A stretch of 59,242 nt of DNA, counting the filler, from Streblomastix strix (Eukaryota): assembly GCA_008636045.1 (NCBI GenBank). It is 3 parts of 3 records of this genome, joined end to end, with 100 filler letters (N's around TTAATTAATTAA, not from the genome) between each part and the next. Parts side by side here need not be neighbours in the genome. Positions count along the whole stretch, not along the records: positions 39,564 to 59,242 come from SNRW01000496.1; 2 more parts are not named here. The stretch is one strand, 5' to 3'. The notes beneath the pieces are model-generated. The model made no database searches. It worked only from the letters and a program-made list of their open reading frames with translations, and was not told the DNA's origin. Made by a program: the position numbers and the translations under genes. Shown one piece after another: positions 240 to 59,242 of this stretch. Position 1 is the stretch's first letter, and each line of letters begins with the position of its first letter.

Positions 240-654
240 AGATCTAGCTAAAGTTTTAATCAAATAATTATTTATTTTATTTAAATTTATTTTGTAAATA
301 GGTTATATGCTCAATATTAATGATCAACGTTGTAAATAAGGCCGAACTGTTGCTAGATACGCAAATTTGTAAAAAAGTTGTTTTTTGCCTTAATTAACTT
401 ATATTTTTGTAGTTTAATACGTAAATATAGTATTTATTTAGATTACTTAATACTTTATAGACATTTTATATATAATACAGCTACACTATTATTAATAAGA
501 GGAATTTCTTATTAATTATTCTATTTTCTTATTTTCTAATAAACCAATCATTATTACTATTTATTTAACTTTATTATTATCATAATTATCATCATTGTAA
601 CAAACTAATTTTCTTTATTTTATTGAATATTTACTCTTTCAAGAAGATTGAATC

Positions 655-13300: not shown

Positions 13301-13821
13301 AGAATACTCTATTTGTAAGACGTATTCCTAACAGTGCATCAGAAGACAAATTAAAAGCACTATTTGGCAATGTCCCGATCAAAGAGATTCGTTTGCTTAG
13401 AAAGCCAGATGGTAATCTCAAAGGTATTGGATACATTGAGTTTAATACTGAAGATGAATGTGCCAGAGGATTAAATGCAGTAAAAGGAAAAGTTATTGAT
13501 GGAGTAGTTCCTGTATTTGCTTATAGTAGACCTCGTGAACCAGATTAATAGAAGACAACAATATCAGCCAGAGCTCGGCACTTCAGAGAGGATGTTGTTG
13601 GTGTGCAGTAACATGGACACGGGAAAAGAGGGAAGAAAGGATAATTCTAGTATATTGGGAAATAAGAAATTAAATAGGATTAAGATGTGGAGAAATAGGA
13701 TGAAAAACAAGGGTAAGATGAGATAGAAAATAAACCAGCAGTAGTAAAGCCTCCCTTCAAGCCAAAAATGATCCCAAGAGGTGTAATGTCATTAACAATG
13801 AAAAAGCGCATTAATATTTGA
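10304..13821 (+). CDS. SART3: SART3/Prp24-like U4/U6 recycling factor (HAT repeats plus C-terminal RRM)
   Basis: HAT-like segments are VRNIYERGI, HVLWRAYREFE, IRQIYYRQLQLP and IWIEYIDAE. The RRM reads NTLFVRRIP...KGIGYIEF, followed by MIPRGV near the C-terminus. Introns lie at about 10520-10580, 11216-11299 and 12599-12674. TGA is at 13819-13821. The start codon is uncertain. Confidence 0.75.
12757..12822 (+). repeat. (GAA)n microsatellite encoding poly-Glu in the SART3-like CDS
   Basis: About 22 GAA units, in frame. Confidence 0.9.
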
Positions 13822-24840: not shown

Positions 24841-25996
24841 TAAAAAAATAAGTCTATATTAATGTAAATTTAGAACTCGTTCTTCACTTCTTCCATTTTT
24901 TTGAAATTGGTGTTATTGACTTTTAATTCATAGTACCCTTCAGTTTTTGGCTTTTTTTATACATTTCTACATTTTTCCCCACTCAAACGCTTTTGATCCT
25001 TCAACGCTTTAGGCAATTGATTAAATAAGTTTCTCAAACTTATTCACGATGAAGTAAGAAGATGAATTGATTATTAAAGCTTGGATGAATGAAATAGTGA
25101 AATATTAAATGAAAATAGATCAAAAATATTAAATGATTTATTAGTTAAATAAGATAACTAATTTATATTCGCAAACGAACCCAAAATCTAATATCTTCAG
25201 GAATGACAATAACAAAGTTTGGCTATTCAATATCATTAACGAAAAATATAACTTTTCTTGGAATAATTATCATATTGACTTCAACAGCAACTCTTTATCC
25301 TTCTAAATATTCCTTATTTCCTATTATATACCTATTTGTACGATAAAGCACTCCGATGATAATGTAATATAGATAAAAGAGTTTGAATAAATATAACAAA
25401 AATTAAGCGATTATGATTAGTTAATAATTTATGATAATAAATAATATTAATTTTAAAACTTTTTACCATTTTGATAATAAATAAATTTATGATTCATACT
25501 CCAAGAATCTGACACTCATTTCATAATTTTTAAAAAATGCATAAAATGAAACGCTGATTTTGATATAATAAATTAATAATAAAGAAAGAACTCAATAATA
25601 AATAATAAAAATTATGTACAAATATGTTAAATGATATTAAATATAGAATAAAAATAAAAAATAATTAAAATTTTGTATTAAATAGATACTTCTATATTCA
25701 AAAAGCCATTGACAAGCTGTAAAAGAACAAGATGCATCAGCAATACCAATGAATGCAATAAAAATTAGATAAATATTAGATTGAAATAAATAATAAAAAT
25801 ATTATAATTATCATTAATTCTTCAAATTCAAATTCATTAATTTAAAATACTTTTTTTTAAATCTTTCCTTTAGACAAGTAATTATAATTAGTATAAATAT
25901 AGGGGGATTTATGTCCCAATAATTTAGAGGAATAATTTGAAAATAAAACTATTTCTTATTAGTTTATGATTTAACTTGATAATTTTTAAAAGTATC

Positions 25997-27783
25997 ATGC
26001 TGAATGAATTCAATCAAAAGTAAAATCTTTACCAAAAATCAGAGGTTTAACAGGATCCATAAATAATTAAAAATCCATTTAGGAGTAAAGTTAAAGATAA
26101 AACCGATATAATATAAGACATTAAATTGAAACCATTAAAGATGTGTTAACGTCCATATTTCTTATCTGAATTAGAGAGCTGGAAAATTGATATTATAATT
26201 ATAATGCATACATTAATTAATAAAGTAATTCAATAATATCTATTCTGCATTAATATTAACACTAAATATTTAGTAGTGTTTCCCATTAAAGATAAATCTA
26301 CGCATGAACTATTAAAGTGTATAAAATAATTAAAATCTAACTAACATATTAATATCATTAGATCAGATGGTGAATCAGCGTTGGGAAGTAAATAGATTAA
26401 GGATTATTTAAAAGATAATGACATAAAATACTTCGATAATTCATCTCCTTTCATTAATAAAAATAGAGTAGATGATTCAGCAGTTAGAACGATAAGAAAT
26501 GTGTTTGAAAATGATCCTTAATTAATAGCTAATAATAAATAATTATAATAAGTTGTTGATGATTATAATTACACAAAACATAATACTTTCTAATAAATAT
26601 TCCCTCGAAAATAAGTAAATTAGAATGAAAATCTAGACGAAATATACATTTGATAAAAAATGAAGTAATTTGCTTATGTAAAAGAATTATAAAATAAAAA
26701 AGCTAATTTGATTTAAAGAAAGGTAATATTTTAATTATACATCTTAATTTGAAAAAGATTGGTCATGCATTTGAGAAACTACATATACAATTTAATGAAA
26801 CAGCAACATTTATAAAATATGAGCATGGAAATGTTGTTAGTTAACTATTGAAATTATATAATGATATAGATGGTTCCACTCAGGAGCGACATCCATAATC
26901 TTATTTAATAAAAAATATTGTATGAATTTTATAAACAATTTTCAAAAATGCAAAATCTTAATTTTATATATATGTGAAAAACAGTAAAAAATATAATTTT
27001 TCCCCTACGCTATGAGTTTAGAGCATTATGTCTTGAATTTTTATAAATTATACTTTTAAAAATATTTAAATTTATTTAATATCATAATATTTCAGAAACA
27101 GCCGTACGCGCCGATAAAAATTAAAAAAATTATAAATTCACAATTTTAGCGAGTAATTTTATTTTATTATGTCATTTTCCAATAAATTTGAAAAATGTAT
27201 TTTATTTAATAAATAAATTGAATGATAACTTTTTATTTTAGTTGAGATACGCGTGTAAAATATGAACATAAGAAATTTTAACCCGATTTTCATAGAAATA
27301 TTGATTATAAATATGAAATTTTTATTAGTGATTTACATTTAAATATTTAAAATAAAACAAAATAAATTAAATTAATAATAGCATTAAACATACTTCTTGC
27401 AAAAATCAAGAATTTCTTTTTTTGTCAATTTTCATCGGCGCGTACGGCTGTTTCTGAAATATTATGATGTAAAATAAATTTAAATATTTATAAAAATATA
27501 ATTTTTAAAAATTCAAGACATAATGCACTCAATTCATCGCGTAGAGAAAAAATTAAATTTTTTTCTGTTTTTCACATACATGCAAAATTAAGATTTTTGC
27601 AATTATGTAAATTGTTTATAAAATTCATACAATATTTTTTTTTAAATATAATTATGGATATCGCACCTGGGCGGAACCATCCATATTAAGATTGTCGAAG
27701 TTCCTATATATTACACAAATATGGTTGCAAATAGTATTGGAACATTAAAAGATAAATATAAGAGAACTTTTAAATTTATTTGA
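25997..27783 (+). pseudogene. Retroviral-like (rve) integrase, disrupted by a TGA, a frameshift and a foldback insertion
   Basis: Motifs are SWKIDI, YLFCININTKYLVVFPIKDKS, IIRSDGESA, NKNRVDDSAVRTIR and VDDYNYTKH. There is a TGA at 26651. The C-terminus continues after the 26868-27682 insertion to TGA at 27781-27783. Confidence 0.75.
26868..27682. mobile_element. Non-autonomous foldback element/MITE, 815 bp, TIRs of about 260 bp, ATAT target-site duplication
   Basis: The left arm AGATGGTTCC...CAGAAACAGCCGTACGCGCCGAT (26868 to about 27130) is the imperfect reverse complement of the right arm ATCGGCGCGTACGGCTGTTTCTG...GGAACCATCC (about 27420 to 27682). ATAT occurs at 26864-26867 and 27683-27686. 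Confidence 0.92.
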
Positions 27784-37825: not shown

Positions 37826-39463
<1,638 letters not shown>

Positions 39464-39563
39464 NNNNNNNNNNNNNNNNNNNNNNNNNNNNNNNNNNNNN
39501 NNNNNNNTTAATTAATTAANNNNNNNNNNNNNNNNNNNNNNNNNNNNNNNNNNNNNNNNNNNN
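39464..39563. other. Artificial contig-joining linker
   Basis: N44-TTAATTAATTAA-N44. Confidence 0.98.
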
Positions 39564-40474
39564 GAGAAAATGTATCAGATGAGTAAATTCAATAAAAGCA
39601 CATTTAGTACTTAACTGGAATATTCTGTATGCTTAGCGTTTCTTAGTAGAGTAATAAGGACTATTAATCATTATAAAATTTATTAATGATAAGTATTAAG
39701 CGGATTAAGTAAGTAAATCAACTCGTAGCAATGAGCAGTGACAATAACAACAACCAATATAAGATTATTAATCTCAGTCATTTATGTTTAAATGTAATTT
39801 TTTTGAAAAGCAAAGAATTGCAACTAACATAATTTGAATTAAAACCATATATTGAGTACTATTCTGAGGTTTATCTTGATAGCATGTTATTGAAATGTTA
39901 AATGAATAATGCATAAATTCTCATAAATCGAACAATTCCATTCATTGTGAAATAATTAGGAATAAACAAAAATCAAACAAAACATATGAAAAATACTCCT
40001 TTATTCATGCATTCCTTAAGAAATTTCCTATCCAACTCACTTCGAATATAAACTACTTATGAACAATAACTAACTTGTAATTCATTAATTGAAATTATAA
40101 TGATAATTTTAAAAAGTTGTGATTAATATGATCTTCAACTTTACTTCATTCAACCGTAAATATTTACATCTATTATAAATATATTCTGTCGTGCAGGAGG
40201 GAATGAAATATATGATAATAATGTAATTAAGAAAGCGGTTAGTTGTTTAAAGGTATTCAAACAATAATTATTGAATGAATCATTTCATACTACAGAGTTA
40301 ATAATAACTAGAAAAATTGAGCAAGAAATTGAGGAATATGGCATATTTGAAGAGTTTGACTCTTTTAGTATAACAGACTTGACTAGAACTGAATATCCTT
40401 CTAAATTCCTGTCGATTTTATTATAGATGTCAACCAAATGTGAAAAAATATTAGAACAAAACTATTGTCAGTGA
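39564..40474 (+). CDS. 5'-truncated hypothetical helical (ARM-like) protein
   Basis: The frame is open with TAR=Gln and ends IEQEIEEYGIFEEFDSFQ...EQNYCQ*. This C-terminal motif parallels that of the 6756-8443 gene. Confidence 0.6.
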
Positions 40475-41639
40475 TTATTGAAGCGACGAATATTAACTTG
40501 TAGTTTGGTAAGATTTAATTGTAAATGTACAATTATAATAATGTATATATTTTAACAATACATCATCAACAAATGACTTACAAGCAAATTTATTTTATTT
40601 TTGTTATTTTGGAATAACAATTCGTGTATTAGATAGAAATTGCAAGTAAAGATGCTTTCAAGATATATTAATTTATATTTATATTATATTTGCAGGTGCA
40701 TTGATGTTTTTTTTCCAGTAAGAAGAATATTTTTATAAATAAGCATATGAAAGAAATTGAATTGAAATAACTTAAGTTAATGCTTGTTATATTCATAAAC
40801 TATAAAATTACTAATTTATGCAGGAAATTCTAACTAATATGCATAATTGACGTATAACCCTATAATTATATTTGTCAAATAATTGCGATTAAATTTAAAA
40901 AAATACTAAATTTTTGAAATGTAGCTATTGTTTTTGATATAGTATAAGTAATATAAATGCGAATAGTATTATATGTGTATAAATGGCGTTATTTTGCTTG
41001 TTTGAGTGAATACATGGGTCGATTTAATCGGAACGTTTCTAATATTTGTCATTATTGGAAATTTTTGTTAAATTTTTAAAGTTTGTTTTTTTTATAGAGC
41101 ACTGATATTTATTTACTCGGTCATCATTAATTTTCACTGCCATACATCGATAACGTTAACTTTCATAGAATAATAGCAATTTATCTAAAGTTTGCCCTTT
41201 TATCGTGTATTATTATTGGGCATTCAATTTTATAGTGTCGATATGGTTGATTTACAGTTTCAATATATAAAACTGCTTGTTTACTCCAAATTAGAAAGTA
41301 TGACTTAATAATACCGACATAATTTTCTTCTAGTCAAAGTTTTTAATATAAACATATTAATGATTATATCAAAGTTTTTTGAAAATTTGTTAACGAGATA
41401 TTTACAATTAAGTAGTATTTTTTTTTAAAGATAACATTTAATATTCCGATTGTAGGACACAATGAATACAGAAAAAAAATCGTAGATTAATAGATTATAA
41501 ATAAATAAACCAAGTAATTGATTAAATATAAAAATATAATAAGATTAAAATAATAATTATTACTATTAAATGTATTATGTGCTTTTAACAAAATAATGGG
41601 TGTATTATAAAAATGAACTTATTAAAAAGGATAAATACG

Positions 41640-42480
41640 AAATGATTTTCAATGTCATATATCGTTAGCATGGCTTCTTTTCTGACAAGCATGTTAGTAT
41701 GGTTTAATATTCTAAGAAGGATGTCAATAATACCATGCTAACTCAGAGATTCTTTTATAGCATCATCAATATATGCGGACAGTTGCTGAAACGAGTGCAT
41801 ATGACTATACGAGATAAGATTCATAGGAGTTAGCCTTTAAAAAAATTGAATTAACTATTATCTTATGTGCAACTGTTGAAAAAATTGATTATATTAGGAA
41901 GTTCCTTAAATACCAAAATGCAAGAATTTAAAACACATGTTGGCAGGGCAGTAGTAGTTTATTTTGTGATGTAGTCTTTCTAGTATAGCATACCAACTCA
42001 GTCATGATGCTATACAAGAGTTTGAATATGCCGTTCCTTAGATATTAGATTACAGTCTTTTATTTATCGTCTGGATTATTGTGTCCCCCTTATGCTGGAT
42101 AGGAATGTACCAATGTCTCTTTGCTATTATGCGCATAAATCGATTGGCAGAGGATTTGTAGTTTGAATCTATTTGATATACTCCTGCTCTAGCTCCGCGT
42201 ATGAGAAGAAACTAGGTGCCTGGATATCCTCGCGTCTGTTCTTCTATTCTATGATAATTTTACTAATATATAGATATTATTTTTGTTTAATTTCAAATAA
42301 CAAATAAAATTGTAAAATATACCTAGATTCCGCTGCGTTCTTAAACAATTTTCACAAATCTTCCTATTTTGTACTCACTGTGGACATTTCCGCACATCAC
42401 GCATTGTTTCCATAATGTATCAAACGGATTTGATGATATAAACGTGGGTAACTGTTCGGCTTCTTCGACTTCCAAACGTT
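41640..42480 (-). CDS. Hypothetical protein with ARM-repeat-like segment (possibly frameshifted or incompletely spliced model)
   Basis: It contains KESLSQHGIIDILLRILNHTNMLVRKEAMLTI and an intron at about 42265-42322. Its ends are uncertain. Confidence 0.4.
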
Positions 42481-42800
42481 ATATTATTCGACGAATATAT
42501 ATATATAGGATAATTGTACTTTCAAAAACTGTAATTCAAAAATACCAAGTTACAGATAGTTATATTGGGGTAGACAATATAATTTTATATTCTATTTAAT
42601 TATATGCACAATATCAAGTATATTATTACATGAGTTACAAGGTGCAATCCCAAAAACGATTCCCCTTATTTATTTTCATAAAAAAAAATAATCTTTTTTT
42701 TTTTAATTTTTTAAATGCTATAAATTTATATTTATTGATATTATGAAAATATTACATATATTTATGAGAATATAAATCGAAACCACATCGCCAGTTAGAA

Positions 42801-44149
42801 ATGGAAGCTAATTGTCCGGGATTTATTATTATTTTCATTTATTGTTATAATTTCTACGTTGTTATTAACACCCTCTAGATATAAAGATGCGGCCAATGAA
42901 GATACCTACAATACGTGCTACAAACTGTAAAACTGGAATTATTTTCATTTTACAGAGTCTAGTGCAGCATTTATTTTAATGAAATATATAATATTTAAAT
43001 CAAGAATATTTATATACACTATATTTACCTAATTAATATAACAAATTGGTTAATGGTATCCTATATATTCGTCAATTTTCTCTACGTGTATTTAATTGTT
43101 GATTTCTTTGTTACTTCATGGGAGTGTATTCATTTAAAATTTCATAATTTGACATCCTTTCCTTTTTTTTCCCCTCTATTCATCTAGAAAACCCAACAAT
43201 CAAAATCGAAGATGATAACGTAGTCAATTCACAGGCAAATCATGAGAAGATATAGGTTTTATATTTATTTTCACTGTATTTTTTTATTATTATTTTCTTT
43301 TCTCCAAATATTATAAATAATCTAATATATATTTTTATATATTGCAGGTTGTAAAGAAGCCCGCAGATGTCATAACACCACACAGTAGCTCACACAACCA
43401 TGCAGCTAACATCAATCCGCCGCCGTTCGATTCTCCTACTACTTCGAATATACAAAACCAACTGGGAGCATTGCAACAATCAAAAGTACGGTTATAAAAT
43501 GCAGGAATTGTATCAATCGGATACGGTATACTGCCATCTAGTAAACCAGCTGCCGTACACTAATAGGAGTAGCAGTCTGATGATTCAGATAAAGACGCTA
43601 CAGATGCTAGGGATGACATGAACGAAGACATCGAAGCGAATGCCGATCAACAGAGACAAACTGCGGTTGTCGTAACATAGAGAAAAAAGCGAGTATGATT
43701 AATATTAAAATACAACATTATTTTATTTATTTATTTATTTTTCAATATTTTAATTAAAAAAAATATATTAAAATTTATGTAGGATAAATGGACTCCTGAT
43801 TAAGATCAAATGCTTCTTAACGCATATACTACACACAAGGGCAAATGGGAAAAGATGCATAAGGATTAATAGGTATTAAATAAATAAAAATGAAATATAT
43901 CCGCTGTTTTATTTTATTATTTTTTTTATTACATAATATATATATATATAAATAAATATATAAATAAACATGTTTATTTATTTATGTGCTAATTTTCAAT
44001 AATATTTACAGTTCCGAGATCTAAACAAAACAGCTTCATAGATGAAGGATAGAGTAAGAAGTATTACATAAGGTAAGTTAGATAATGATCTCAAAGAATA
44101 ATTTATTGCATAAAAGTAATAAATCGATACTGACAGTGCATAGAAATGA
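42801..44149 (+). CDS. Multi-exon protein with a single C-terminal Myb/SANT domain (TRF/telobox-like)
   Basis: Spliced 3' exons give RKKR|DKWTPDQDQMLLNAYTTHKGKWEKMHKDQQ|FRDLNKTASQMKDRVRSI, with TGA at 44147-44149. The 5' exons are uncertain. Confidence 0.7.
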
Positions 44150-44469
44150 TCAACAGGACAACTTTTTTTTTTAATTTTTTTTTTAGATTAAATTAGTTAT
44201 TTTCAAACACTTTTATTATTAAAATTATTACAACTTAGATTAGATACACAATTAAACGTAGTATTAATAGGAGGGGGGAAAAAATAGTTCATATTTTTTT
44301 TTAATATATTAATTTAAACTTCTTATTCAATAAATTAGTCTTATAACAATTATATCATCTACACTCTTTATTTGTTACAAACGTTAAAGGAAATATCAAA
44401 AGAATAGAAATAATAATAAAAAAGATAAATATTTTTTTTTTGATAATTATTATAATAAGAGACGTTATA

Positions 44470-47400
44470 TCAGAATTGGTTTTTAACTTAACGGTTGCAA
44501 GAAACACCTAATAAATCCTACCCATCTGAAACAAATCCCGAATAAGTACAACCACATTCTTCGTTTACCTGCATCCAATTCAACCAGTTCGGCTATTCAT
44601 CTTCTAGCTGTTGCTTCTCATATTACTATGAAAATACTACAGTCTACTTAAGCAACTGCTCATCATCTTGCTCTACCGATTATCTGCCTTAACTCTGGCG
44701 TATTTTCTTCATCTCATTCGAATACACGTCTCTCATCATATCAGCATCTCTAATATTGTGATCTTGCTTCAAGACTTATACGAAATCGGCTACATCATAT
44801 CGTACGTTCAGTGCAATAATGCCTCCAAATAGACGCTGCCCGTTGTCTGGGATATGTAGCGATGGCTTCAATTCATCTTGTTATGGTTCAAACAAGCCAC
44901 TTGACTGATCCTAACTGTTTCCTTTGTTAATCTGATCTGAACGTCCAAAATTGTCATCTTCCTCCTAGCATCTCTCTTTTTAGTCTTCATCAATGCAATA
45001 TTTGATTCTCTTAACATGTTCTATGTCAACTTCAAATTTTGTCTTCTCGTGAATTCTCATCTCATTTGCTCTTCTTTCATCTGTGAACTCTTTCCTTTTA
45101 ATATAAAGTGTTTGTTATTATTATTATTATTATTATTACTGTTATTGCCATGATTAGTTTTAAACTGTAGAATCAACCATGAAATGATTACCTCCGATAT
45201 TATCAAAACATTATATCTCAGGAATACACACACTTCTCTTAAAATCAGAGACTAGATGGGCGTTTGCCAATGCAAGTGAAACATTTGTGAAAGAAGGCAT
45301 CCTTTGCCTGTTGGCTGTAGCAAACCTAGCAGTCATTGCTTGTCGAAGATCATCATATTACATCTAACGACAGCACGGCATATCAGCAAAATCAACCAAG
45401 TACATGTCGTAATCATCTTTTGGAAGCACAGGTTTCTGGTAGTACCTCCTCTTGGGTGTATACTCACAGACGTCCTCAGTACAAAACGAATGAATAACCT
45501 CGTCAAATTAATGTGACTCTACCATATCAACGTCATATTGTGTGATCGATCCGCATTTGAGCGATTCGCAATTATCCGGAATGTTGTGCGTTGACCTCAT
45601 TTGCTCATATTGCTAGGGATCGTATTCTTGTTTATCTGGGTTAAGTATAGTTTCCTATAACTCTACTAACTTGTCTGCGATTCTGTTTCGTAGCTTAGAC
45701 TGGTCGTACATTTACAGTGCATAACTCAATACAAGAACTGCACAAAATTGGCAATCCATCCACTACATCTAAAACGGCATTTAAATTTTGTGGCTCTGAA
45801 GGACTTTTTCGTCGTAAGTCAGGTAGCTGAAATTTCCAAACATCTCGTACTAGCAGTATGTAGACATTCTTAGCAGTTATCGCATTAGGTGGAATTGTTA
45901 TTACGAATTTTATATGCTTATATTAGATGATAGCTAATCACAAATGAGAAGGAGCGGAGCCTACGAGGGAACAGGATAGTTCATTATCTCGTAGGAATAA
46001 GACGGATATAAACTTGGCAGCTATATTTAATTTAAGCTATTCTCATCATATTCAATTTAATGAGCGAAGCGATCAAACAGTCTGTAATGTTTTTTTGCAT
46101 CCAGAAGTTGTAATTGCAGGTCATTAGATTATGTTTAGTTTGCCATGCCTGAAACTTGTTTTGAACTACCAATCTATTCGTTTGTTCTCTCGGAATTTGG
46201 AAACTTCAAACCTAGCCCTAGCCTTTCTTCTTCAATACGAACTTCTTCTTCAACAGGCGACAAAAATAAGTCCTATAAAAATATTTAGGCTACATTATCA
46301 ATATCTTTATTTGGGACTGTATGAGTTATTTGCGTATTAATTCCGTTATAAATACTATTGACTATTGCTTTTAAATCTTTGTCGTCTTCCAACTCTTTTT
46401 GTTGATACTAGCTAGAAATTAATTCTTCAAGAACACGAAGACGATGGGGAGGTTAATGTAGACGATTCAGTAATTATTGAAGTGGAAAATACTTCTATAT
46501 CTCTGACAGTGATACAGAAAGCTGTTAAACGGACAAAGCAGGTCCCCCATTTTCAAGCAAATTCGTACATTTCATTAATAATTAATCATAAGGTTCAGTA
46601 AATGGATCAAATGTGGCGCATAGCTCAGTATCTTGCAATTTGATGGACTTTGGAATACTACCGACGATCTTTGTTTACCTCGAATCTTAAGAAACATATT
46701 ATTCTTGTTACTATTATTGTGATGTGCCATGCTCATCCATTGAAGTATTATTTTCTACAATGATCTTAAATCTTTTTATTCCTTCATCAGTTACATTACT
46801 ATCAATTGTGCCCCTTTTACGTTTAATAGCTGTATTGACATTGAAAGGATTATAGCATCTAACAAAATCAAGCCAGAGCCGGAAGAATACATTCATTAAA
46901 GAGTTAGACATCTCTGGCACTTCTAGCCCTAGAATATCTAATATACCGACATTTTTCACGTTGCAACCTAGCAGAAGATTGGAATGCCCATGATTGTATA
47001 CACAAGTAGCAATCAATTCTTTATCTGCAAATCTATGCCCGAGCCCACCAGTATTCTAGGATTAATTATATGCAAAAATGAAATCGTCATCAAATTTCAA
47101 AGATGATGGAATGATGGGAAAACTCCTCATGCCATTAGGTGTGTTTTTTCCTAATAATGATGGCAGTGAAACTTAAATAGGTATAGTAGCTTGAATAGGA
47201 ACTGAATTACGGTTGCACTACAACGAATAATTTAAAAGATACGCTACAAATGATCCATGAGGCGAATTGTTAAATTCTTACAGGAATGATAAGTCTTTGG
47301 ATAGTAACTTTTTAAAGTACTCATTTTCGTTGTCGCCATTCTATTAGCTTAATTTTGAAGCGATCATGTTATATCGCTCAATTCTAGCATCCATCAATTT

Positions 47401-50400
47401 GTCTCGAATAGATTAAAATTATTAATGACTCCAATCTATATCTCCTTTTGTCGATATATCAAAAAAGCTAGGCTTGTATATCTGTCTGAGCTATGTACAA
47501 AACATTGAGACTGAAAATTGATACAAATCTATATGTTTATTGATATGTTGATTATTTACAAGATTTGAAATAATTGTATTTTCCAATTATCTTACTTTTA
47601 TATCTTCAATATTGTCGTTTGAATATCTATTTATCTTAAATGATAAATAAGGTACATACTTTAATGAGGAATATACATCTTAAAATCCCATCTCCTTTCC
47701 AATTATAGGGTTTTAAATTGATATTTATCTAGAAATGTTCTAATTATAATAAAAGTGGTATGTTTGTTAATAGACACTTTTAAGATTATCGATGGCTTTA
47801 GGTTGAGTAACTATTTTTCTTGTTTAATCTCTCCCATCTGATTCTGTATGTGTTAATAATGACTTAATAAATTAAAAATTAGGCAATTGTACAGTCTACT
47901 GTATATCGCTGGTTCTAAGTATGTAGTTACCAATAGCCGAGAACATAACATCAAGTAACTCTCCATCCATACCCTCGGATGAGATGGATTCAAGAAGGCA
48001 AGACTAGGTTATGTCGTGACAATTTGGCCCTGAAACAGGATAGGGAATAGCAAGTTTGGAATTGCCTATTTTAAACGTCCTTATGCGAAGTAATGTCTAC
48101 CGGGATATCTGAACAAACAACGGGGAGCATGGAAGTGCAAATGTTGGCAGTATCAACTCAGTCTGTTCTTTACCTTCTTCTTTACCAAGTTTCTCTAATT
48201 CCTACTTATATGACTTGCTGAGTATAGTATTCCTATTCAACATGTACTCGTCAATACTCACGTGCACTGCAACTGGCAGGCGCAATGAAGGCAATGATTT
48301 GATTATATTGAGCACTGATGGAACTATCTCGAACTACTGATACTGTCCATCAATCATTATCTGTCTTAATCGCTCTGCTGGGACAACACTCCTGTTTCCT
48401 TCACGTAGATTGTCAGCCCAAGGTGTAGGAAGGATGCGGAAGGGCTAGAAGATTGGAAACATGAAGCATCTAATCGTACTGAACCAGAAATGGAGGACCC
48501 TCATGAAGTGTATCATAATATAGTATGAGTCGGGATTTGGTGGAAGAATTACATCATCCCTTAGGAGGTGGTGTAATAGGGTGTTGTTATTTGCTCCTTA
48601 TCTCTCAAATCTCTCAAAAACAAAGACTGTCCAATTTGATCTGTCTACGAGATCCATCCTAACCTACCTTTCGTTCTTCCATTTGTATCCAGCAGGACTG
48701 GGGCGATGAGGAACGTAATTGGTACTTTCCGAGCTCTATCTCTAACTCTTTTATGGCGAATTAAGCAACGCTAGAACAACTTACTAAGCATCTTAATTAA
48801 AATTCACATATAGCGGCTACTGTTACATTATGTTACAAAAAGGTATACTTAGAGTCAGGACTATCACATTACCATGGTTTATTTATCTGACGCATTCTTA
48901 TGTTTTGATATTATAACTAGCTGCAAACTTCATCAGTTCGTCAATCAATCCAAGTTTATTATCATCCCTCCTCATTTCTATTCTTTTGTCTATGTACGTA
49001 ACTGTTATGTTTAATGTTGGGAGGATGTACTACTTCATTTGATGAATAATATATTGCTACGATAAATATGTACTGTAGCCTTATTTCATGCCTTAATTAT
49101 CGATTGAATTGCAAGAATCTATTTTGGACGGTCCTATTGTCGTCCATATGCCGATGATACGTATATCTGTTGAATTTTATATATTCACTTATATATCAGA
49201 TAGTTCTATCCAATGATCATCCCAAAATATTCTATGAAGAGGAACCTCGAATTCTTGCTACTAAGGAACTTGCGATTATTAATGAAATGAGTTATATACA
49301 GACGTAGCTAATTATAATGAAAACTTTCTCTAGCCATCCTTGCCAAATTCATATTGGAACTTACTTAGCAAGTTGTTTATTGTTTATTTTGAAGGTGCAC
49401 TTCCTGCTATTTTCTATTAGTCAGGATGATCTAACAAATAAATACTGACACTTTCTAGCTCCTACAGTTGATTTTCATGCTAAATATATTAGATATCCTC
49501 TTTGTTATCTTACTACTAATTACTTTCTTCCAAATTCTATTAAATCGACGTTCGGTTGCTAAAATTATTATCAAGATTCTAGGTACATTTGGTTAGTATT
49601 TGAGCAGCTGCTTCTCTATCTCTGCAGTCTCTCCACTCGCTAGTCGATAGGATTGCACTAATAATATATGTAAGAATCAGTTCATCCATCAGCAACAAAT
49701 TAACAATAAGATATCTGAAAGAATTATAACATTAAACTCGCCCAGATGATCCACATTGTTTTGTGCTGCTAAGTTGCTACTCTCTCACCAGTTTAATCGG
49801 TCGCAATTCGCTGTTTCTTAGCATGCATAATGTTGCAATACTTATTTCATCAAAATTAACTTTATTCGCTTCCGATCCTTTGACAGTACATTCTAAGCTG
49901 TCGTCATTCCTAATGTCTCTCATTATTAAGTGTGTAGGTTTCTCCTCTTTGATCCGACTCAATATATCACCAACAGCTCTTCATATGAGTGAAATGTATA
50001 GGATGAAATTGCACATAAACAATTCATGTCTGAATTGCCTTGCTATAATGTCTGAAGGGTAATACCTTATGTGCTGGAACACTGGCTGGTCCTCGAGAAG
50101 GAATTATCTGAGGATTTGTTACTCACTTCGAGGATTTGATGTTCTAGAATGATAGTATGAAGTTGTAAATCTTGTTCGTTTCCTTATATCATTGTCAAAT
50201 TACATTGATGGTATCCTAGAAAATTATTATTCTATTAATTGATCAATGTTAGTTAAATGATCATTAGAAATGTTAACTTATGGAATTATAGTTATTTTCT
50301 TTGGATCACTACTACTACCGTTTCTGAAATTATTTGCCCATCTCTTACTCATCTTTCTTTCTGTAGCACACACTTGTCTGTATAGATCTGTGTCGAAGTT

Positions 50401-53400
50401 GCATTCTATCTAAGTTCTCATTAATTATATATTAACTAATTCTAGGCGCTTTGCAAAATTATAAAGCAGAGGTCCGAACCCATCCATTATTACTTGCTCA
50501 TCGCTTGATAGATTAGAGGACTTCTCCTTGAAACTCTAGGTAGAGTCTATCTTTTGAATATTTTATTCTGTCTTCAATTATTCTAGTTTTCTCTTCATCC
50601 TCAAAACATCATCATCGTCAAGCTGCTTGAATATTTGAACTAGAAATGTATCGTTAAGCTCATCACGATTGTCTTTTTATCCTTCTGATGGTGTCTGCTT
50701 GTTATGTGTTTACTCACTATTATTCAACACTAGCGAAAGCGCAGTTATATATAGGGTAGCAGACAAATAATGCATTTAATCTATGGTATTGTCATATGGT
50801 TGAATTTTAATCGGTCTAGGATATAAAAGCATATGTTACATGTACATTGGAGATATTATCAAATCGACGTACAATTAATCTGGTGCTAGCCGCTCCCCCG
50901 GTAACAAGTGAACAAGAAACGGCTCTATATCATGTTGCAAAGTTTTCAATATCTAACTCGGATTGACTTATTCCGTGTATGAATGCCAAACTGGATTCCC
51001 TGAGCCATCATCCTTATCCATTTGGGAATGTTTTATATCAACTGCTATATGAGGATTTAAAGTAGATGAGAACTGAGCATATGTAACGTTTTGTAGAAAT
51101 TAGATGGTAAGATCACACTTTTCTGGCGTAACTTATTCAAGTTACTATAGAATAGTATGGAAGAGAGACAATTTATTAGTATTATTGTTAAGATTGTTAC
51201 TGCTGCTGTTGCCATTCAAACCCTTTTTTAACTAGGAATGTACTATCGCAAGGGATATCCAATTTGATTCTCCATCATTAATTTCTTATTATACTTACGA
51301 TTGACTAATAATGACATTTGTTTCGTTCTCTAAAGTCACATCTAGATCAGCTTTTGTATATTTTGTTCTAGATTTTTATTCATATAATACTACATAACAA
51401 TCAATAGCATGTATTAATGATTATACTCCTCTGCCCAAAGTAAAATTCCTCCCGTAGTATTCACCATTGGTAAAATTTGGTGGATCCCAAGTACAATCAT
51501 ACTACTAATTTGCATTGTATATCTAAGTTTATTCTTAATCGACTGAATTTACACAGTTGATATCGTTAGCAATAGAATCAATGCTCTATTTATTTATATA
51601 ATCTTTTTCCATTGGTTTACTTGCATCCAGACTAATTTCGTCAATCGTGATTTTTTTGAGCCATTGTAGTCCTTCAATCGTACTTTTTTCTGGCGTACAG
51701 AATTTATTGTCGATGTAAATATGGGTGTTATTTGATATATGTTGAATAATACGACAGAGAAGTAGGCGTATGTCTATGAAACATTAGAAGTTAAGATCTA
51801 AATCTTTCCACATCCCTTAGGCTACATTTTATCCATTCGCCTAACGTTTTATAGATTCAGTTAGATCTTATTACCTTAATTCACTGTTAGGTTATTTGTC
51901 TCCTTTGGATTATGTCTACTATAAATTGTTCAAATATTCTAATTTATTCAGAAAATAATCAGCAAAGTATATAAAATGAATCGCCCCGTACATATCACAA
52001 TAATCCTTACAGTGAGTGTTGAGTTAAAATGGTGGAGTGACCAACAGCTGCCTTCGTTACTCGCGTTTTTTTTTCAGCTCGTAATGTTGTCGTTGTAGAT
52101 GAAGTGGTTTCTGTTAAACAGATGGGAATACTTTAGGAAGAAGTAATTCTTCGAGTTCAAATTCATATTCAGAGCGTAATATATTCTTTCTTTAAAAGTA
52201 TAAACTCACAAATTCATACTAAGGAAGATCAAATAATCTAAGAACATTAATATTGATGCTCCGATTGAACAAGCCACATAGCATTTCACCCACATCTTGG
52301 AATTCAAACTAACTCCATCCGATGCTCTTTCCATACTTATATATTATTCTTCGGATTGTGTAGTTTATTGGAAAGTGCTAAAGCAATTGACGTCCACCAA
52401 ATGGGAACATAAACTATAGTAGCGACTTATTCAGTTCGTGCGATATGTATTAGTTAATGCTATATATGTTGAATGGAATATTCGTTCCTATTGAACTATT
52501 GATATTAGAATTAATTCGGGAATTTTAATCCTTTTATATATTTATTTACTAATCTATGATTGATTGGGTCTATTGGTGAATAATCATTACGTGCGGAGTT
52601 TAAATAGAATCTTATCCTGATTATAATGATGATGACTATGACAATGATGATGATGACGATGTTTGAAAATAGGGGAATATATCATGAATTACTTTCATTA
52701 ATGAATCATTATTGATAATGTTTCTTTTATCCACTTTTAATATATCAATTGTCTTACAATTCACTTAATTTTCATGTGAGCTTTTAGAATCTTGCTTTTA
52801 CACAGTTTATTATTAATTCAATTTGACAGATTCTTAGTCAACTGATTGAGTTATATCTAAATGAGGACTTTTCAATTCTATAAGACTTTCATATTGATGT
52901 AAGTTTATCTTTGATGATTCCAAATAGAAGAACCTTGACTAGCTGCCGTCATCATCCATGTCCTGTAAATAAGATTTTATGTCTTTAGATTAATCAGTTG
53001 TTATAATATCTTTTTATAGATCATCAGAAAGATTTGATTACTTAACCTATTCTTTATGTATAGATTTCAATCTACTCACATACTATTAATACTCTATTTC
53101 CAACCCTTCATTGACCGCTTCTTAAAGTTATTATTTGGCATTCAATTGTTAATTATAATCTTTCAGCTGAAATATCAAATTTCGTGGATTTTTTATTTTT
53201 TTCTATTTGTATAAGTTGTGTGATTAAAGACCATCGTAGAACACCCAATTATCATTGTGAATATTCATCATGTATGTATTATAATGCCCACCGCAGCCTT
53301 ATGTGGTATATGCAGATACAGCTATTAACTCATACCTACGAATTTCTTATACACCATTTATGATGAATTTAACATCCTGAGATAATGGTACTGTTACTTC

Positions 53401-54546
53401 GGACTTGTACTGTGGCATAAATCCTGAAATTGCATTTATATACAATATTTATGGCACTCTAGAGAAATATTCAAATTCGTAAAATGAACCTTTAGTGTTG
53501 CACTCATCACATTTGCATTATTCATTAGCATTATATTAAAACCAGACATTCATAAATGTGAGCAATTAGTCACAAATTGTTGTATTTGTAATTTGTCCAG
53601 TCATTTAAATCATTTATGTAACCTTTGGTCTAGAAATGCAATGACTGCATGTAGGAAAATACATCAGTCTTCTAAAATCAGTATTAAACAGGTTTCCCAC
53701 AAAAGTTGAGCCAACTTATTCAGTAAGGTCCGCTGATAACTCATACTGTATCCATTAAAGAATATTAGTTGTAAATTCATCTGCGTCTTGTTGTTAAACT
53801 AACAGATAATCCTCACTTTGACGAGTAGCAGAATGTTATAAGGCATATCTTAATTCTACACCACTAATTATTTTCCGTTCTGATGTAAAATAATTTCTGA
53901 TGAATTTAGCATATTGGAAAGAAACTCTAGAGTTAGCAATAGCATTAAGTCTCAAATGACCTAAAAATTTATACGATAAAAAGAACGTCGAAAGTGGAAT
54001 AATACGAGCAAGTGTATGCAATATACTCATATAACATGTAAGTTTGTTTGATGACATAACTGGACGTTAATTATTGATAACAAGATGTAAGTCTGATACC
54101 TTATTCTTTGACTTGCGATTGGATACATTTTGTTGTTAATTCTTGTTATAATTGTAAATTTATTTGTAGCTGGATGGATTATTTGGGCGTGTTCTGGACA
54201 AGTCTATGTATTCATTAAATGATTCAGCCTTATCACTTCCAAAGCCTGATGTAAGTACCTAAACACTATAATCAGTATTATAGAGACGTTACCCTGAAAG
54301 TTTTAATTCTTCAACTGTTGCTTCGGTAAATTTTCTATTTTTTTAATATTATTTTATTTCAAATTCGTCATAGAGCTATAACTTACATTAATTTACAATC
54401 TCTTATATGATCCTTTAGAAGGAGAAGGAAATAGGCACCGACACATGAATTGGTTGGGATCCTTTGTCTTTATAGCAGATAAAAGTCATGGTCTGAGATT
54501 TTGCTTATATGATATTATTATTAGGGCTTGTAAATGCTTTATTCAT
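44470..54546 (-). CDS. Giant protein of about 3,350 aa: N-terminal USP (C19) deubiquitinase domain plus CE-clan (Ulp1/C48)-like modules
   Basis: One frame runs from ATG 54546 to TGA 44470-44472 with a single internal TGA (49981-49983). The USP has TCYMS (Cys 54034), QQQDADEF, Zn-finger CxxC, GGHY (His 53284) and WVFYD (Asp 53233). The C48-like module has NHGHSNLLL...GILD and PFQMQWMDCQF. Confidence 0.85.
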
Positions 54547-55386
54547 AGCTCTAAAGAGATTTTCAAAAAAAAAAAAAATAAAATAAAATTCACACTATAA
54601 TTTCATACTAAACTAATAAAAAGACCGGAAGTTTAATATTATTATTGCATGTGAACATAAATTACGAAATTTGTTTCATTAATATGTTTTGATGTAACTA
54701 TATATTTTTGTGATTTCTTGATTTTTTTTTTTTTAAAAAAAAACAAAAAAAAAAAACGGTTGTTCACTGATCGTTATGATTATAATAAATATAATTTTAA
54801 TTTGGATTATGTGTAGTTAAAGGAATTTAATCAATTGTATGTTTATTTGAAACTTTTACTTTATTTATATATCAATCTTTTTGTGTAAAAGATTTGTATA
54901 GAAAAAAAAATAAATAAATAAATAATTTTATATGTTATATCTATATTAATCAATATTATCTAATTCTGTGTTAAAGATTATTTTCATAATTTTAGTTTAA
55001 TCATCAAGTTAAAATATTCGAGTAAAAATTATTTTTTTTTCCAACTTTGAATTATTTGAATTATTTCAGTTCTTAAAATGAAAATAAAGTTTCACACTTG
55101 TAAATTTTCTTATATTATATTGGATTAATAAATATAAACTAAGCTCATAGTGTGTATTATTTTAACATTGTATTTATATATATACATATATATTAATATT
55201 ATCAGTATCAAATCCTTAATAAATATATTTACAATAGGATTATACTATGTTTGATAATAAATTAAAATTTAATGCAGTTATAGTTTGATATAAATCTCTC
55301 ATATATTTATATGTATATATAATTTATTTGCAAAACTCATTTGTATTTATAAATATTATCAAAAGGCAAATGAAATGGAATATTAC

Positions 55387-58300
55387 TCAGACACGATATG
55401 GTTTAAAAAATACATATTTGTTATAAATAGAATTCGTTAACATTTATCCATCATCAATATTACCCAAACTGTAACTGATGCCTTCGAAATTCTACTGAAG
55501 TTAATATAGGGGCTGTATAAATTTCTTTGATTTATTTCTTTGTTATTTTTTGAAATATATTAAATCTTCTATATCTCTGCATATATGAAGAACCGAGGAA
55601 AGTGGGAATTCATTCATTAATGATTATTTATATTCTTCAGTCATATCTTCACCACTAAGGAATGTTTCATCAAAAGCAATCTACCACAACAACTAGATAT
55701 ATTCAAGGTACATCCTATTGGACTGTACCTTAAAGCCAGTCATTATTATTTCCCAAATTCTCTGAAATATTTCAGATCTACCCTTGTATACATAGCGTGT
55801 ATAATAGCGAAAGACAGTATCATGTTAAGGACATGCAGGATATTTATGAAACTGAGATTGAAGAAGTTCTTCGGAAGAAGACGAGTTCAAGATAGGTTAT
55901 TCAATATGATTATCGGTGAATTGTAAAAGAACTTCATAAAACGATATAAGAGGGTGTGTTTAGAAAAGTTGCAAGTGATTATTATTTGCTCGTTTCAATA
56001 TGTCCTTTGCAAATGTTCTAATGTCCGAATTGATTTGACTAATTCGTACTGCAATTTATTCTAATATTAACGTTGACATGGAAGTTAACTTCTTATTAGA
56101 TGACACTATTTATATTAAATGTTTTTTGTTTAATAATCCAATAAATTGATTAGTTCGAGTATCGACTTAGTTACCATAAAAGATTTTGATCAACTCAAAC
56201 TAATGATCGAGGAAATTGTCCCGAGGTTATTGTTATATAGCTAGATATAAGGGTAGATATAAGAAGCGTCTCATTTTTATGTTAGATTATGAATCATTGC
56301 TTAAGTTTTTGATTTAAAACACATGGATATTCTATTCATCTATATTTTGTATATCTTAATAAGTATTAATATTAGCTTACCAATCTTATACAGTCAGATA
56401 TTATAAAATTTGCAAAAATTTGTCATTTGATGCTTTATTGCTTTCATCGTATACATATTAGTTGGGTATTTCAGTTTGTCTATTAAATCTCATTTCATAT
56501 TCACTTTAACATTACTATACATATTGTACAACTAAGCTATGAATAAAAGCAGTATTATGGAGTGGATCACTATCATAAACGATATCGTTTGGATATTATC
56601 GGGATTAATATTGGATAATGCCTTTTTTAATTAATTATTTTAATTTTTTGTCAAGATATTCACATTCATCGTCATTATTATCACCCGATTTAATACCATT
56701 ATTAATATTTGATTAATTGTCATCGTTAATTAAATCAAATTTGTTTAATAAATCCTATAATTAGCTAAAATTTGTCAAACCTTCTGAATTCGAATAAATA
56801 CGAAAAGCTAAAAATTCTAAGTATTTAAGACGTGGTAAAGGTTAGGAAACCATCGATGCTAATTACTTATATGAACAATGATACTCTGCAGATTAATCTA
56901 AGTTCGAAGAATGACTAATTTTATCAGGATTATTGTATTATCCAGTCGATGCTTTATCTTTCTTCTATATATTTCTCCTGAAATTGGTAGTTAAACCTTC
57001 AAGCAACTCTGTATAGTTGGCATTAATAGTTATAGTCGGCATTTTGACATTTTTATCGTATTAGCACACACTACGATATCTAGATAAAAACCTTGAATTT
57101 TTGAGTTGGTCAAATATTTTTAATATGTATTCTATATTAGTATGAAAATAGGAACAATCATCAAATTTGATGCCTGTGAATATATATTGCAATATTGATA
57201 TTGGATTGCCGTCTGTTTCGCTATCTTAAAAAGACATACTTTGGATTTAACGTGAAACTTCATCTATGATGTTGTTGGTAATTATGCTTTTTTCTGTAAG
57301 AATATGCATATCATTTTCAAAATCTCGACTGCCATCTTGCTTAATATCGCAACGGTTAGGGCGGCAGTTCTCTTCCGATTTAACCTATATTTTTTTAAGT
57401 TATTTAATTTTGTCATCAGCAAAGGAATTTTCCTATAATGCCTAACAGGAATGTGGATGCTGTTCTTCTTCTATAATGCAATATCTGCGCATAAGACATG
57501 TAACTTACCGACTTAACAGTGATAAACGGTTTGAACCAGGTAAAAAATATCTTGTACTATTAATGGATTTTGAGCTGTTTGAATATCTCATGTGTTAATA
57601 AATGAAGAATCTATACGAAGGTTCAGACATGACAATATTACTAAGTTAATCGTTCTACGTATTAGAATTCTGATGCGATTCACTCGTAAGATAGTCAGCC
57701 CAATCATCTGGAAGAACTCAATATGGTAGAAAAGATGGAAATACAGGATTTGGCACAGTACTTAACCAAAAATGAAGAACTTCCATATATTCAACACCGT
57801 CTTATAAGCACGATTTAATATCTATGCTACAGAAAACAAAGACTATCCAATTGGACTATTGCTGATAGTCCAGACAGTTCTAACAGAGACTCTAATTTAA
57901 AAACTAATTACCTTTGGATGTTTTTATATCCAGTATTGCAAGTGTAACTTTGTTCTATTTTTCATTAAAGTTAACGAACATATTTCCATTCATACCGGAT
58001 ACGTATCTGTCTAATGATATTGTTATATAACTATTGAACTTGTTGCTAATTAGACGACCTTATAAATCATAATAAGTTATATTGTATTATTTCGAACTAT
58101 CCTTTTCAGATGATTTATATTAATGGTACGTTGCAATATCAAATAAAACCTAATAATGCGTCTTATTTTCTGTATTTATGTTAAACCATATTGTTATCTT
58201 AGGTATATGGTTCTTAGTTAAAACTCTCTAAAACTTATCAGAGTAAGTAATTGTTGAATCATCAAGACCAAACAAACCATTACCAAATGTTTGTAATCCT

Positions 58301-59241
58301 ATGGTTGTACAAACATCCATTTTACACTTAATTAGACTACATTCATATCCTTTATAAATTATTTTCTATAGAGGAATTTAAAATAGAACTCGTTAAAGTT
58401 AATGAGTAGCAGGGGGAATATCGCAATTATTGCAATGGTTATCAGCATTAGATTTAATACTTTATTAACCTTCACGAATAGTATCATAGAACATAGCAGG
58501 TTTAGTAAAATCACAACAGTCGATATGGAATAACAAGAACTCTAATTCAATAAGATGCAATATAAACTTGTTCCGATTGGAAGAGATTAACTGGTCTTCG
58601 ACATTTTCCACGTTTGACTAATGGATTGTGGCGATATCGATGTGTGATGATTCTGTCTGATTTATTTCTTTATTACTATTTTGCTTATTATGTTTATTCT
58701 ATGGCCATTACGGTTCTTTTTTAACCACTTATTTACTCTTAATTCTAAAATTAGAATATTATTCAATTGCAGAATTTGTTAATATAAATGCCCTATGTAC
58801 AATCATATCCCATACTTTCATAGAATTGTACATTCTAGCAATAAACTATACTGGTATATCAGAAACGTATAAATGTGTTGCTTCATCATTAATTTATCTT
58901 TCATTTTCTTTCAATTTTTCTATTTGAATTTATATTTCTTTTTAGTTTGACTCTAATCCATCATCTGATACTCTTTATTACTAGACATATTCTTACAATT
59001 CATTGTATAATTTACCCTAACCCTAACCTTCCATATACGATTACGTCTAATCTTCAAGCTATTCCATAAATGCCAACCATTCTGATTCTAGCAGGAGTTA
59101 TGTACGAGGGATAGGGCACGACCCAATCTTCTGCTTGAAAGTGTTATAGTCATACGAAAGAATCTCCGATAATTGAATATATGTATCCAAATCGAAACTA
59201 TTGTACTCATTATTAAAAGATTCATACGATAATAGTTCGAT
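55387..59241 (-). CDS. 5'-truncated giant ORF (more than 1,280 codons), paralogous to the central part of 44470-54546
   Basis: One frame with a single internal TGA (57718-57720). It shares the blocks TTIG, VNFN, SNWxVFVF and VLHFWxSTxxxxxFPxFxPxxxLPxxWADxL with the neighbouring ORF. The 3' end might splice further. Confidence 0.75.
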
Positions 59242-59242
59242 A

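Follow-up and report, generated by a model that had tools for sequence, protein, structure and literature searches.

Among described systems, those closest to the locus presented here are the giant multi-domain USP (C19) enzymes, the accessory domains carried by USP enzymes, the Ulp/SENP (C48) cysteine peptidases and the lineage-specific orphan domains of fast-evolving protist protein families. In the animal giants USP9X, USP24 and USP34 the catalytic domain is found in the middle of the protein, amid helical repeats, and the C48 enzymes have a His-Trp strand with a His-Asp spacing. We have analyzed a window of 59,242 nucleotides of the termite-gut oxymonad Streblomastix strix (assembly GCA_008636045.1; all positions count along this window) in which two giant open reading frames, ORF1 and ORF2, share a short stretch of conserved protein sequence that we call the module. 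The reading that we favour, and that we hold to be somewhat likelier right than wrong, is that these are two adjacent genes of a eukaryote using TAA and TAG as Gln, containing one anciently duplicated module of approximately 100–140 residues that is under purifying selection, has no detectable relatives and is predicted to be non-catalytic.

TAR codons are read as Gln in Streblomastix, according to the available portion of PMC13002328, and the long ORFs of this region appear only under such a reading. With table 11 not a single ORF of at least 150 aa was found between positions 40000 and 59242. With table 6 (TAA/TAG as Gln) one frame is open over 44470-49923 plus 49981-54606, and there is another long ORF at 55387-59241. 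ORF1 (44470..54606, minus strand) has 3379 codons counted from its first ATG at 54606, with 230 TAA or TAG codons read as Gln and one in-frame TGA. ORF2 (55387..59241, minus strand; 1284 codons plus the stop) lacks its 5' end, since the window stops within it. It also has one in-frame TGA, and both ORFs terminate at TGA. Variant contigs were available from termite gut metagenome runs X1 and X2 (the window stretch was present in two of the four runs listed, from two studies, and only in runs with this label). In the X2 variant of ORF1 there are TAG to CAG and TAG to TAA substitutions, in keeping with TAG coding for Gln. The GC content of the window, measured in 2-kb steps, was 20–36%, and that of the S. 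strix assembly is given as 26.6% in the part of PMC10703272 available.

The spacer between ORF1 and ORF2 (54607..55386, unstranded) amounts to 780 bp up to the first ATG of ORF1, or 841 bp up to the ATG at 54546 chosen in the first-pass annotation. A single frame running through ORF2, spacer and ORF1 was considered, as the frames agree, and rejected: the spacer contains two further in-frame TGAs, its GC content is 0.15–0.17 at 54700-55299 and its translation is junk. Because of this composition and translation we count two genes and not one. That they are adjacent, co-oriented nuclear genes of a eukaryote reading TAA/TAG as Gln we hold with the strength of the joint reading given above.

ORF1 has a USP domain in its N-terminal part, and the protein is a putative deubiquitinase. 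Residues 189-473 (53188..54042, minus strand) matched the USP/UCH (peptidase C19) family PF00443 with an E-value of 3.9e-16 and 59.9 bits (cut-off 23.9), over profile positions 8-246 of 254, which bears out the USP domain that the first-pass annotation had placed at the start of ORF1. The stretch 'ltcym' of ORF1 aligns with 'NTCFMN' of USP15 (6crn_A), the Cys box with the nucleophile Cys, and 'gghy' aligns with 'GGHY', the His box with the catalytic His. When the USP region was searched with a word index among proteins of 1857–5912 aa, none scored.

Whole-protein BLASTP of ORF1 against ORF2 gave one significant HSP (E 5e-11, 40 of 138 positions identical), joining residues 1932-2067 of ORF1 with 421-518 of ORF2. 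This is the core of the module. In ORF1 it is located at 48406..48813 (minus strand) and reads LYVNFN .. SNWTVFVF .. VLHFWFST .. FPIFQP .. LPTPWADNL, with two insertions specific to ORF1, and in ORF2 it is located at 57688..57981 (minus strand) and reads MFVNFN .. SNWIVFVF .. VLHFWLST .. FPSFLP .. LPDDWADYL. The Smith-Waterman score of the core was 131 against 36.8 ± 5.7 for shuffled sequences (z 16.5), a score reached by none of 500 shuffles. A degenerate 48-nt motif of the core was found in exactly two places of the window, the two copies, and nowhere in 100 shuffles. Upstream of the core, a possible N-terminal extension (ORF1 aa 1786-1931, 48814..49251; ORF2 aa 287-420, 57982..58383; both on the minus strand) can be aligned collinearly between the two ORFs and is not significant alone, since the upstream half with FEVPLHRIFW/FQIPLQKIIY and IWTTIG/VCTTIG scored 37 against 31.5 ± 5.3, a value reached by 76 of 500 shuffles. 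The block positions given before were right (from the start of FEVPLH to the end of WADNL, ORF1 runs from 49251 to 48406; from the start of FQIPLQ to the end of WADYL, ORF2 runs from 58383 to 57688). The collinear conserved blocks claimed with them stood the shuffle test in the core and failed it for the upstream blocks alone. The similarity is real, over a stretch of about 100–140 aa, and narrower than first claimed.

We found no third copy within the window, the known copies being two full ones plus variant fragments. The suggestion of a gene-family array made in the first-pass annotation thus holds in part: there is a further related contig in run X1, but the window lacks a third copy.

Over three core blocks the two copies are identical at 109 of 180 nucleotides (61%) and 33 of 60 amino acids, with the same codon used in 18 of the 33 identical residues. 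The residues kept are for the most part hydrophobic or aromatic ones and prolines (VNFN, SNW-VFVF, VLHFW-ST, FP-F-P, LP--WAD-L). When both copies were compared with the variant contigs, the core codons had 16 synonymous versus 5 non-synonymous changes: 8 and 1 for ORF2 against a 235x contig of X1, and 8 and 4 for ORF1 against X2. This variant evidence comes from single contigs of low depth (2.8–4.9 in X2), and the variants may be paralogs rather than orthologs. The non-synonymous share, 5 of 21, is far below the approximately 78% expected (p 2e-7). Purifying selection acts on the core. These values agree with the earlier view of highly diverged nucleotide sequences, an old duplication and selection at the level of the protein. 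One of the changes in X2, N2066Y in ORF1, converts WADNL into WADYL, as in ORF2. Three flanking stretches accumulated 4 synonymous versus 34 non-synonymous changes, and residues 1875-1924 of ORF1 compared with X2 had 1 and 11. Synonymous changes prevailed also in two stretches outside the core (ORF1 aa 1515-1541, 5 versus 1; ORF2 aa 1236-1253, 3 versus 0).

The in-frame TGA of ORF1 (codon 1542; 49981..49983, minus strand) is AGA, coding for Arg, in an X2 contig that spans 49936-50099 at a depth of 4.9 and has an A to T change on the plus strand at 49983. Among the other changed codons near this site five of six are synonymous. ORF1 is therefore one continuous gene. A 42-nt GT..AG intron that would hide the TGA was ruled out by the same AGA and the synonymous changes around it. 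For annotation, the two halves of ORF1 are to be treated as a single gene and its in-frame TGA as not ancestral. The in-frame TGA of ORF2 (codon 508; 57718..57720, minus strand) falls inside the core, where it is the asterisk in the alignment of the first-pass annotation and aligns with Arg 2057 of ORF1 (CGC).

Both TGAs correspond then to Arg in a homolog, and the X1 contigs, X1 being probably the source of the window itself, are the same as the window at both sites. This would be the pattern if UGA were not a strict stop in this organism and both codons underwent read-through or were decoded, perhaps as Arg. We find this very improbable, as there are only two cases, in each of which a single base separates TGA from an Arg codon, as would be expected of simple nonsense changes or of errors in amplification, and both ORFs terminate at TGA. 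Besides, the Hexamita table, with TGA as stop, was used for Streblomastix in oxymonad transcriptome work (in the portion of PMC13002328 available). The two TGAs, together with the several stretches of almost exclusively non-synonymous change, might also indicate that both ORFs are decaying pseudogenes and their similarity a relic. This is improbable too, in view of 3379 and 1285 codons with a single TGA each and without frameshifts, in DNA whose sole stop codon is TGA, the AGA found in X2, the purifying selection on the core and the further synonymous-biased stretches mentioned above. Genes under constraint in the module remain our preferred reading.

A more serious alternative concerns how the two genes came to share the module. 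The core could be a domain that is mobile, or that was recruited independently, and that occurs in giant proteins with no other relationship, in which case ORF2 would not be a paralog of the USP gene. In agreement with this, BLASTP was empty past the 138-residue HSP (next HSP with E 1.9), so that collinearity does not extend along most of the gene, none of the 1284 residues of ORF2 in the window matched a Pfam family (PF00443 included) or a PDB chain, and the module is located approximately 1300 aa from the C-terminus in ORF1 versus 770 aa in ORF2. Against it, the genes are adjacent, co-oriented and both giant, as a tandem duplication would give, and the flanks change so fast (the 4 versus 34 changes in three stretches) that an old paralogy would be erased outside the constrained core. 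We consider domain sharing unlikely, although it keeps an appreciable share of the probability. With significant similarity, the same orientation and adjacency, the pair has what is expected of tandem paralogs, and we infer tandem paralogy over the whole gene length and not the sharing of a single domain.

Relatives of the module were searched in several collections. Pfam gave sub-threshold chance rows for both copies even at E≤10, and the PDB sequences gave nothing at E≤10 with a profile of the two copies. An exhaustive HMMER search of 1,835,955,588 proteins, in which a hybrid profile of ORF1 residues 1640-2789 and the ORF2 module was the query, retrieved no match at E≤0.001. Word-index searches found no relatives either, for the module region among proteins of 1857–5912 aa or for the module among those of 598–2000 aa. 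The metagenome contigs gave 339 pattern matches and the viral contigs 209, none of them confirmed, and no match to the motif in either set. One motif match in prokaryote genome contigs (an Algoriphagus record) was discarded as chance, its frame being full of stops. In the literature matches listed, neither Streblomastix nor ubiquitin appeared in title or abstract. The absence of relatives is a weaker statement for TAR=Gln organisms, their likeliest holders, because gene calling with the standard code would fragment the proteins of such organisms in the libraries, which for annotation purposes are not to be trusted in this respect. All this is in line with the first-pass annotation, where the domain could not be assigned. 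Two AlphaFold2 models of the module (mean pLDDT 32.4 and 29.9) were unusable for fold.

The conservation of hydrophobic, aromatic and Pro residues makes the core of a fold, or a surface for binding, likelier than an active site, and we infer from the residues kept that the module probably has a binding role and not a catalytic one. It would be a beta-rich docking or structural domain, predicted to be non-catalytic, and in the complete gene it would link a partner or substrate to the USP-type deubiquitinase at the N-terminus. A broader proposal is that, with the SNW-VFVF / VLHFW-ST / LP--WAD-L core, we have the first piece of a domain family not described before, perhaps with a new fold, confined to TAR=Gln oxymonads and marking giant, fast-diversifying proteins of the ubiquitin system in which the module alone is constant. 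We regard it as possible, and lean against it.

The first-pass annotation had suggested that the SNW strand might be that of a C48 pseudo-protease, so that the core would be a highly diverged, catalytically dead Ulp/SENP cysteine peptidase. In the module an Asn-Trp does precede a hydrophobic strand (SNW-VFVF), and in ORF2 a conserved Asp appears 17 residues later (L-Q/R-D), both of which recall the C48 arrangement. The suggestion found no support in the searches: Peptidase_C48 (PF02902) was not matched by either copy at E≤10 and the PDB search with the two-copy profile was empty at the same threshold. Furthermore, there is Asn in the place of His, and the copies share no Cys or Gln column downstream of SNW. 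The strongest conservation is found in HFW-ST/FP-F-P/LP--WAD-L, a stretch for which we know of no counterpart in C48. Such an origin is thus highly doubtful, and we keep to an old paralogous module predicted to be non-catalytic.

The multi-gene element also proposed in the first-pass annotation fared no better. Endogenous viral elements with the same code have been reported in S. strix (in the part of PMC10120064 available), and a sub-threshold match to an integrase core (rve) was found at 25970-26650, so that the ORF pair could be part of such a viral element or of another mobile element with several genes. However, of the 73 ORFs in the stretch from 19.6 to 45 kb none had a Pfam family at E≤1e-4, no relatives were found among the viral contigs and the other genes of the window are ordinary cellular ones (Sir2, pseudouridine synthase, HAT/RRM, PH_3). 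As hallmark genes beside the ORFs we looked for capsid, polymerase and integrase and found none, the sole lead being the weak rve match 18 kb away. We give this origin hardly any credence, and two adjacent cellular genes is the reading retained.

The module is, in our judgement, an old paralogous, lineage-specific curiosity and not a new kind of system, and it has no bearing on any long-standing open question. Should it prove to be a domain truly specific to this lineage, it would open a way into a family of giant deubiquitinase-linked proteins in an uncultured, amitochondriate termite symbiont, and would illustrate cleanly how a small core is kept under constraint within very fast-changing genes. 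Compared with the giant multi-domain USP enzymes, ORF1 is similar in having a PF00443 domain, a very large size and a long non-catalytic region, but its USP domain comes early in the protein (residues 189-473 of 3379) and the approximately 2900 residues that follow match nothing. The likeness to DUSP and other USP accessory domains is that the module, from the alignment, would be an aromatic- and Pro-rich, putatively non-catalytic part of a USP enzyme. It differs in being located in ORF1 some 1450 residues from the catalytic domain, and neither copy matched DUSP (PF06337), UBL, MATH or other accessory families at E≤10. With the Ulp/SENP peptidases the resemblance is loose, the Asn-Trp and hydrophobic strand against their His-Trp strand, and the module differs in the family match and in the conserved Cys or Gln that it lacks. 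The lineage-specific orphan domains of fast-evolving protist families differ from the present case in that here there are two full copies only, with no third in the window, and resemble it in the short constrained core within a long fast-changing sequence and in the adjacent copies, with a further related copy in the same sample.

Comparison of the two giant ORFs at the end of the window, ORF1 (44470-54606) and ORF2 (55387-59241), both on the minus strand, revealed a single shared module. Whole-protein BLASTP gave one significant HSP (E 5e-11, 40/138 identical) between residues 1932-2067 of ORF1 and 421-518 of ORF2, the second-best having an E of 1.9, and the local score of 131 was reached by none of 500 shuffles (36.8 +/- 5.7). 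The first-pass annotation had proposed a longer series of blocks. Its upstream pairs (FEVPLHRIFW/FQIPLQKIIY and IWTTIG/VCTTIG) are collinear, but alone they scored 37 against 31.5 +/- 5.3, a value reached by 76 of the 500 shuffles, so that the proven unit spans 136 residues in ORF1, whose copy has two insertions, and ca. 100 in ORF2. DNA identity over the core blocks was 61% (109/180 nt) and the same codon was used at only 18 of 33 identical residues; at this level of sequence divergence the duplication is old. A two-copy HMM run against the six-frame translation of the window found no third copy (next best E 0.016, 9.7 bits).

Under the bacterial code there were no ORFs of at least 150 aa in 40000-59242, and table 4 gave a single ORF of at least 200 aa across the entire window. 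With table 6 (TAA/TAG as Gln) there were 44, and the excerpted text of PMC13002328 gives this reassignment for Streblomastix. ORF1 has 3379 codons, including 230 TAA or TAG codons for Gln and a single in-frame TGA (49981-49983). A USP/UCH domain was found at residues 189-473 (PF00443, E 3.9e-16, 59.9 bits vs. a cut-off of 23.9), in which TCYM and GGHY stretches line up with the USP15 Cys and His boxes. Judged from sequence, the enzyme is probably active, a working deubiquitinase. The rest of ORF1 had no match in Pfam or PDB sequences, nor did ORF2, whose 5' end lies beyond the window edge and which also has one in-frame TGA (57718-57720).

The TGAs were examined in contigs resembling the window from two public termite gut metagenome runs of different studies, both sites in X1 and that of ORF1 in X2. 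The X1 contigs are equal to the window at both sites, X1 being probably the window's own source and not independent. An X2 contig covering 49936-50099 (14/164 letters differ, depth 4.9) has AGA (Arg) in place of the ORF1 TGA, and of six further codon changes close by, five are synonymous, indicating that ORF1 is one continuous coding gene; on the same grounds a 42-nt intron over this TGA was rejected. The ORF1 TGA is either a nonsense change particular to the strain or an error of amplification or assembly. That of ORF2, inside the core, aligns with Arg 2057 (CGC) of ORF1. That both face Arg is curious, yet expected from single-base changes of AGA or CGA. The 780-bp spacer between the ORFs has a GC of 15-17%, a junk translation and two more TGAs in the shared frame. 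Most simply, ORF1 and ORF2 are two genes; the spacer may instead hold a long intron.

Each listed difference between the window and the X1 and X2 contigs was classified in frame; these variant contigs are single, mostly of low depth and possibly paralogous. The ORF1 core (residues 1932-2077, vs. X2) had 8 synonymous and 4 non-synonymous changes, and the ORF2 core (422-502, vs. an X1 contig of 235x depth) 8 and 1. Together, 5 of 21 were non-synonymous where ca. 78% was expected (p 2e-7), and one of the four in ORF1, N2066Y, produces the WADYL of ORF2. The high nucleotide divergence, old duplication and selection on the protein proposed at first pass are thus borne out. Outside the core, the synonymous and non-synonymous counts were 1 and 11 at ORF1 1875-1924 (48837-48983, vs. 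X2), 0 and 11 at ORF1 1122-1222 (50942-51243, vs. a 24x contig) and 3 and 12 at ORF2 604-706 (57125-57432, vs. the 235x contig). These 34 non-synonymous changes in 38 are not below the neutral expectation (excess p 0.057), suggesting relaxed constraint or diversifying evolution in the three stretches. For ORF1 against X2, the core differed from the adjacent stretch with a Fisher p of 0.009. Constraint appears again at ORF1 1515-1541 (5 synonymous, 1 non-synonymous) and 1606-1614 (4 and 3), both vs. X2, and at ORF2 1236-1253 (3 and 0, vs. a ~59x X1 contig). Random errors would not be expected to concentrate at third codon positions. The genes contain a small conserved core and are otherwise fast-changing.

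The ~235x contig, a further related copy or strain from the same sample, shows similarity to ORF2 confined to collinear patches (57072-57527, 57700-57790 and 57932-58006), which include both core blocks; ORF2 from 59059 onward was noted alongside 57072-58006 for this match. In X1, precisely the core blocks are retained, at a DNA identity of 85% or more, by a related, more abundant contig, a sequence hint that more family members may exist. To that extent the proposed gene-family array gains support, but the window itself holds no third copy.

Searches for relatives left the domain unassigned, as the first reading had it. Pfam at E<=10 gave just sub-threshold chance rows for the core, Peptidase_C48 and DUSP being absent, and its two-copy profile matched no PDB chain at E<=10. 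A profile of ORF1 1640-2789 plus the aligned ORF2 module matched none of 1,835,955,588 proteins at E<=0.001, in libraries that are blind where relatives are likeliest, since standard-code calling would fragment proteins with TAA/TAG as Gln. Word-index protein searches found no relatives, nor did those of metagenome, prokaryote-genome and viral contigs. The one motif hit came from an Algoriphagus record and was discarded as chance, its frame being full of stops. AlphaFold2 with two-row alignments gave two models of low mean pLDDT (32.4 and 29.9), both of which set strands on the VNFN, V-LA-L and NW-VFVF blocks; weakly, they suggest that the core is probably beta-rich.

The window has a GC of 20-36% in 2-kb steps, and the excerpted text of PMC10703272 gives 26.6% for the Streblomastix strix assembly. 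The stretch 47000-51000 was present in two of four listed public runs (two studies), both labelled termite gut metagenome. Taken with the genetic code, this makes a Streblomastix-like oxymonad the probable source. Elsewhere there are ordinary eukaryotic genes: Sir2 (E 1.8e-51), a pseudouridine synthase, a Suf/HAT plus RRM gene and a PH_3 protein. The Suf/HAT-repeat and RRM ORFs (10485-13818, plus strand) overlap in different frames and are likely one SART3-like gene split by an intron or frameshift. At 652-2766 (plus strand), the ORF for the pseudouridine synthase shares its frame with the one just upstream, from which a single TGA (1609-1611) separates it; the junction looks non-coding, making an intron more likely there than a third in-frame TGA. 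N runs at ~19.8 kb and 39.4-39.6 kb (176 bases in all, two places) were read as scaffold gaps, the second coming after a long stretch of poly-Gln in ORF 38888-40471. A multi-gene (mobile) element, also suggested at first, finds no backing in the 73 ORFs of 19.6-45 kb, which gave no Pfam family at E<=1e-4. The sole mobile-element lead is ORF 25970-26650 (plus strand), whose weak match to the integrase core (PF00665 rve, E 1.6e-4) stays below threshold, at 22.4 bits vs. a cut-off of 32.6. It is probably a decayed retroelement or transposon and lies 18 kb from the two ORFs, in a part of the window (24-42 kb) that is very rich in AT.

ORF1 and ORF2 are best interpreted as old tandem paralogs, or at the minimum as two genes with one old module in common, in a lineage-specific family of giant proteins. 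Since hydrophobic and aromatic residues and Pro make up most of its conserved positions, the core is predicted to be a constrained docking or structural unit and not an enzyme. The orphan module of the giant USP gene and its neighbour is real, old and selectively maintained, and narrower than first described; it is not surprising or field-changing, but merits a note to annotators of oxymonad genomes. As for known families, likeness to a C48 pseudo-protease came down to an Asn-Trp dipeptide and one Asp, with no match to Pfam Peptidase_C48 at E<=10.
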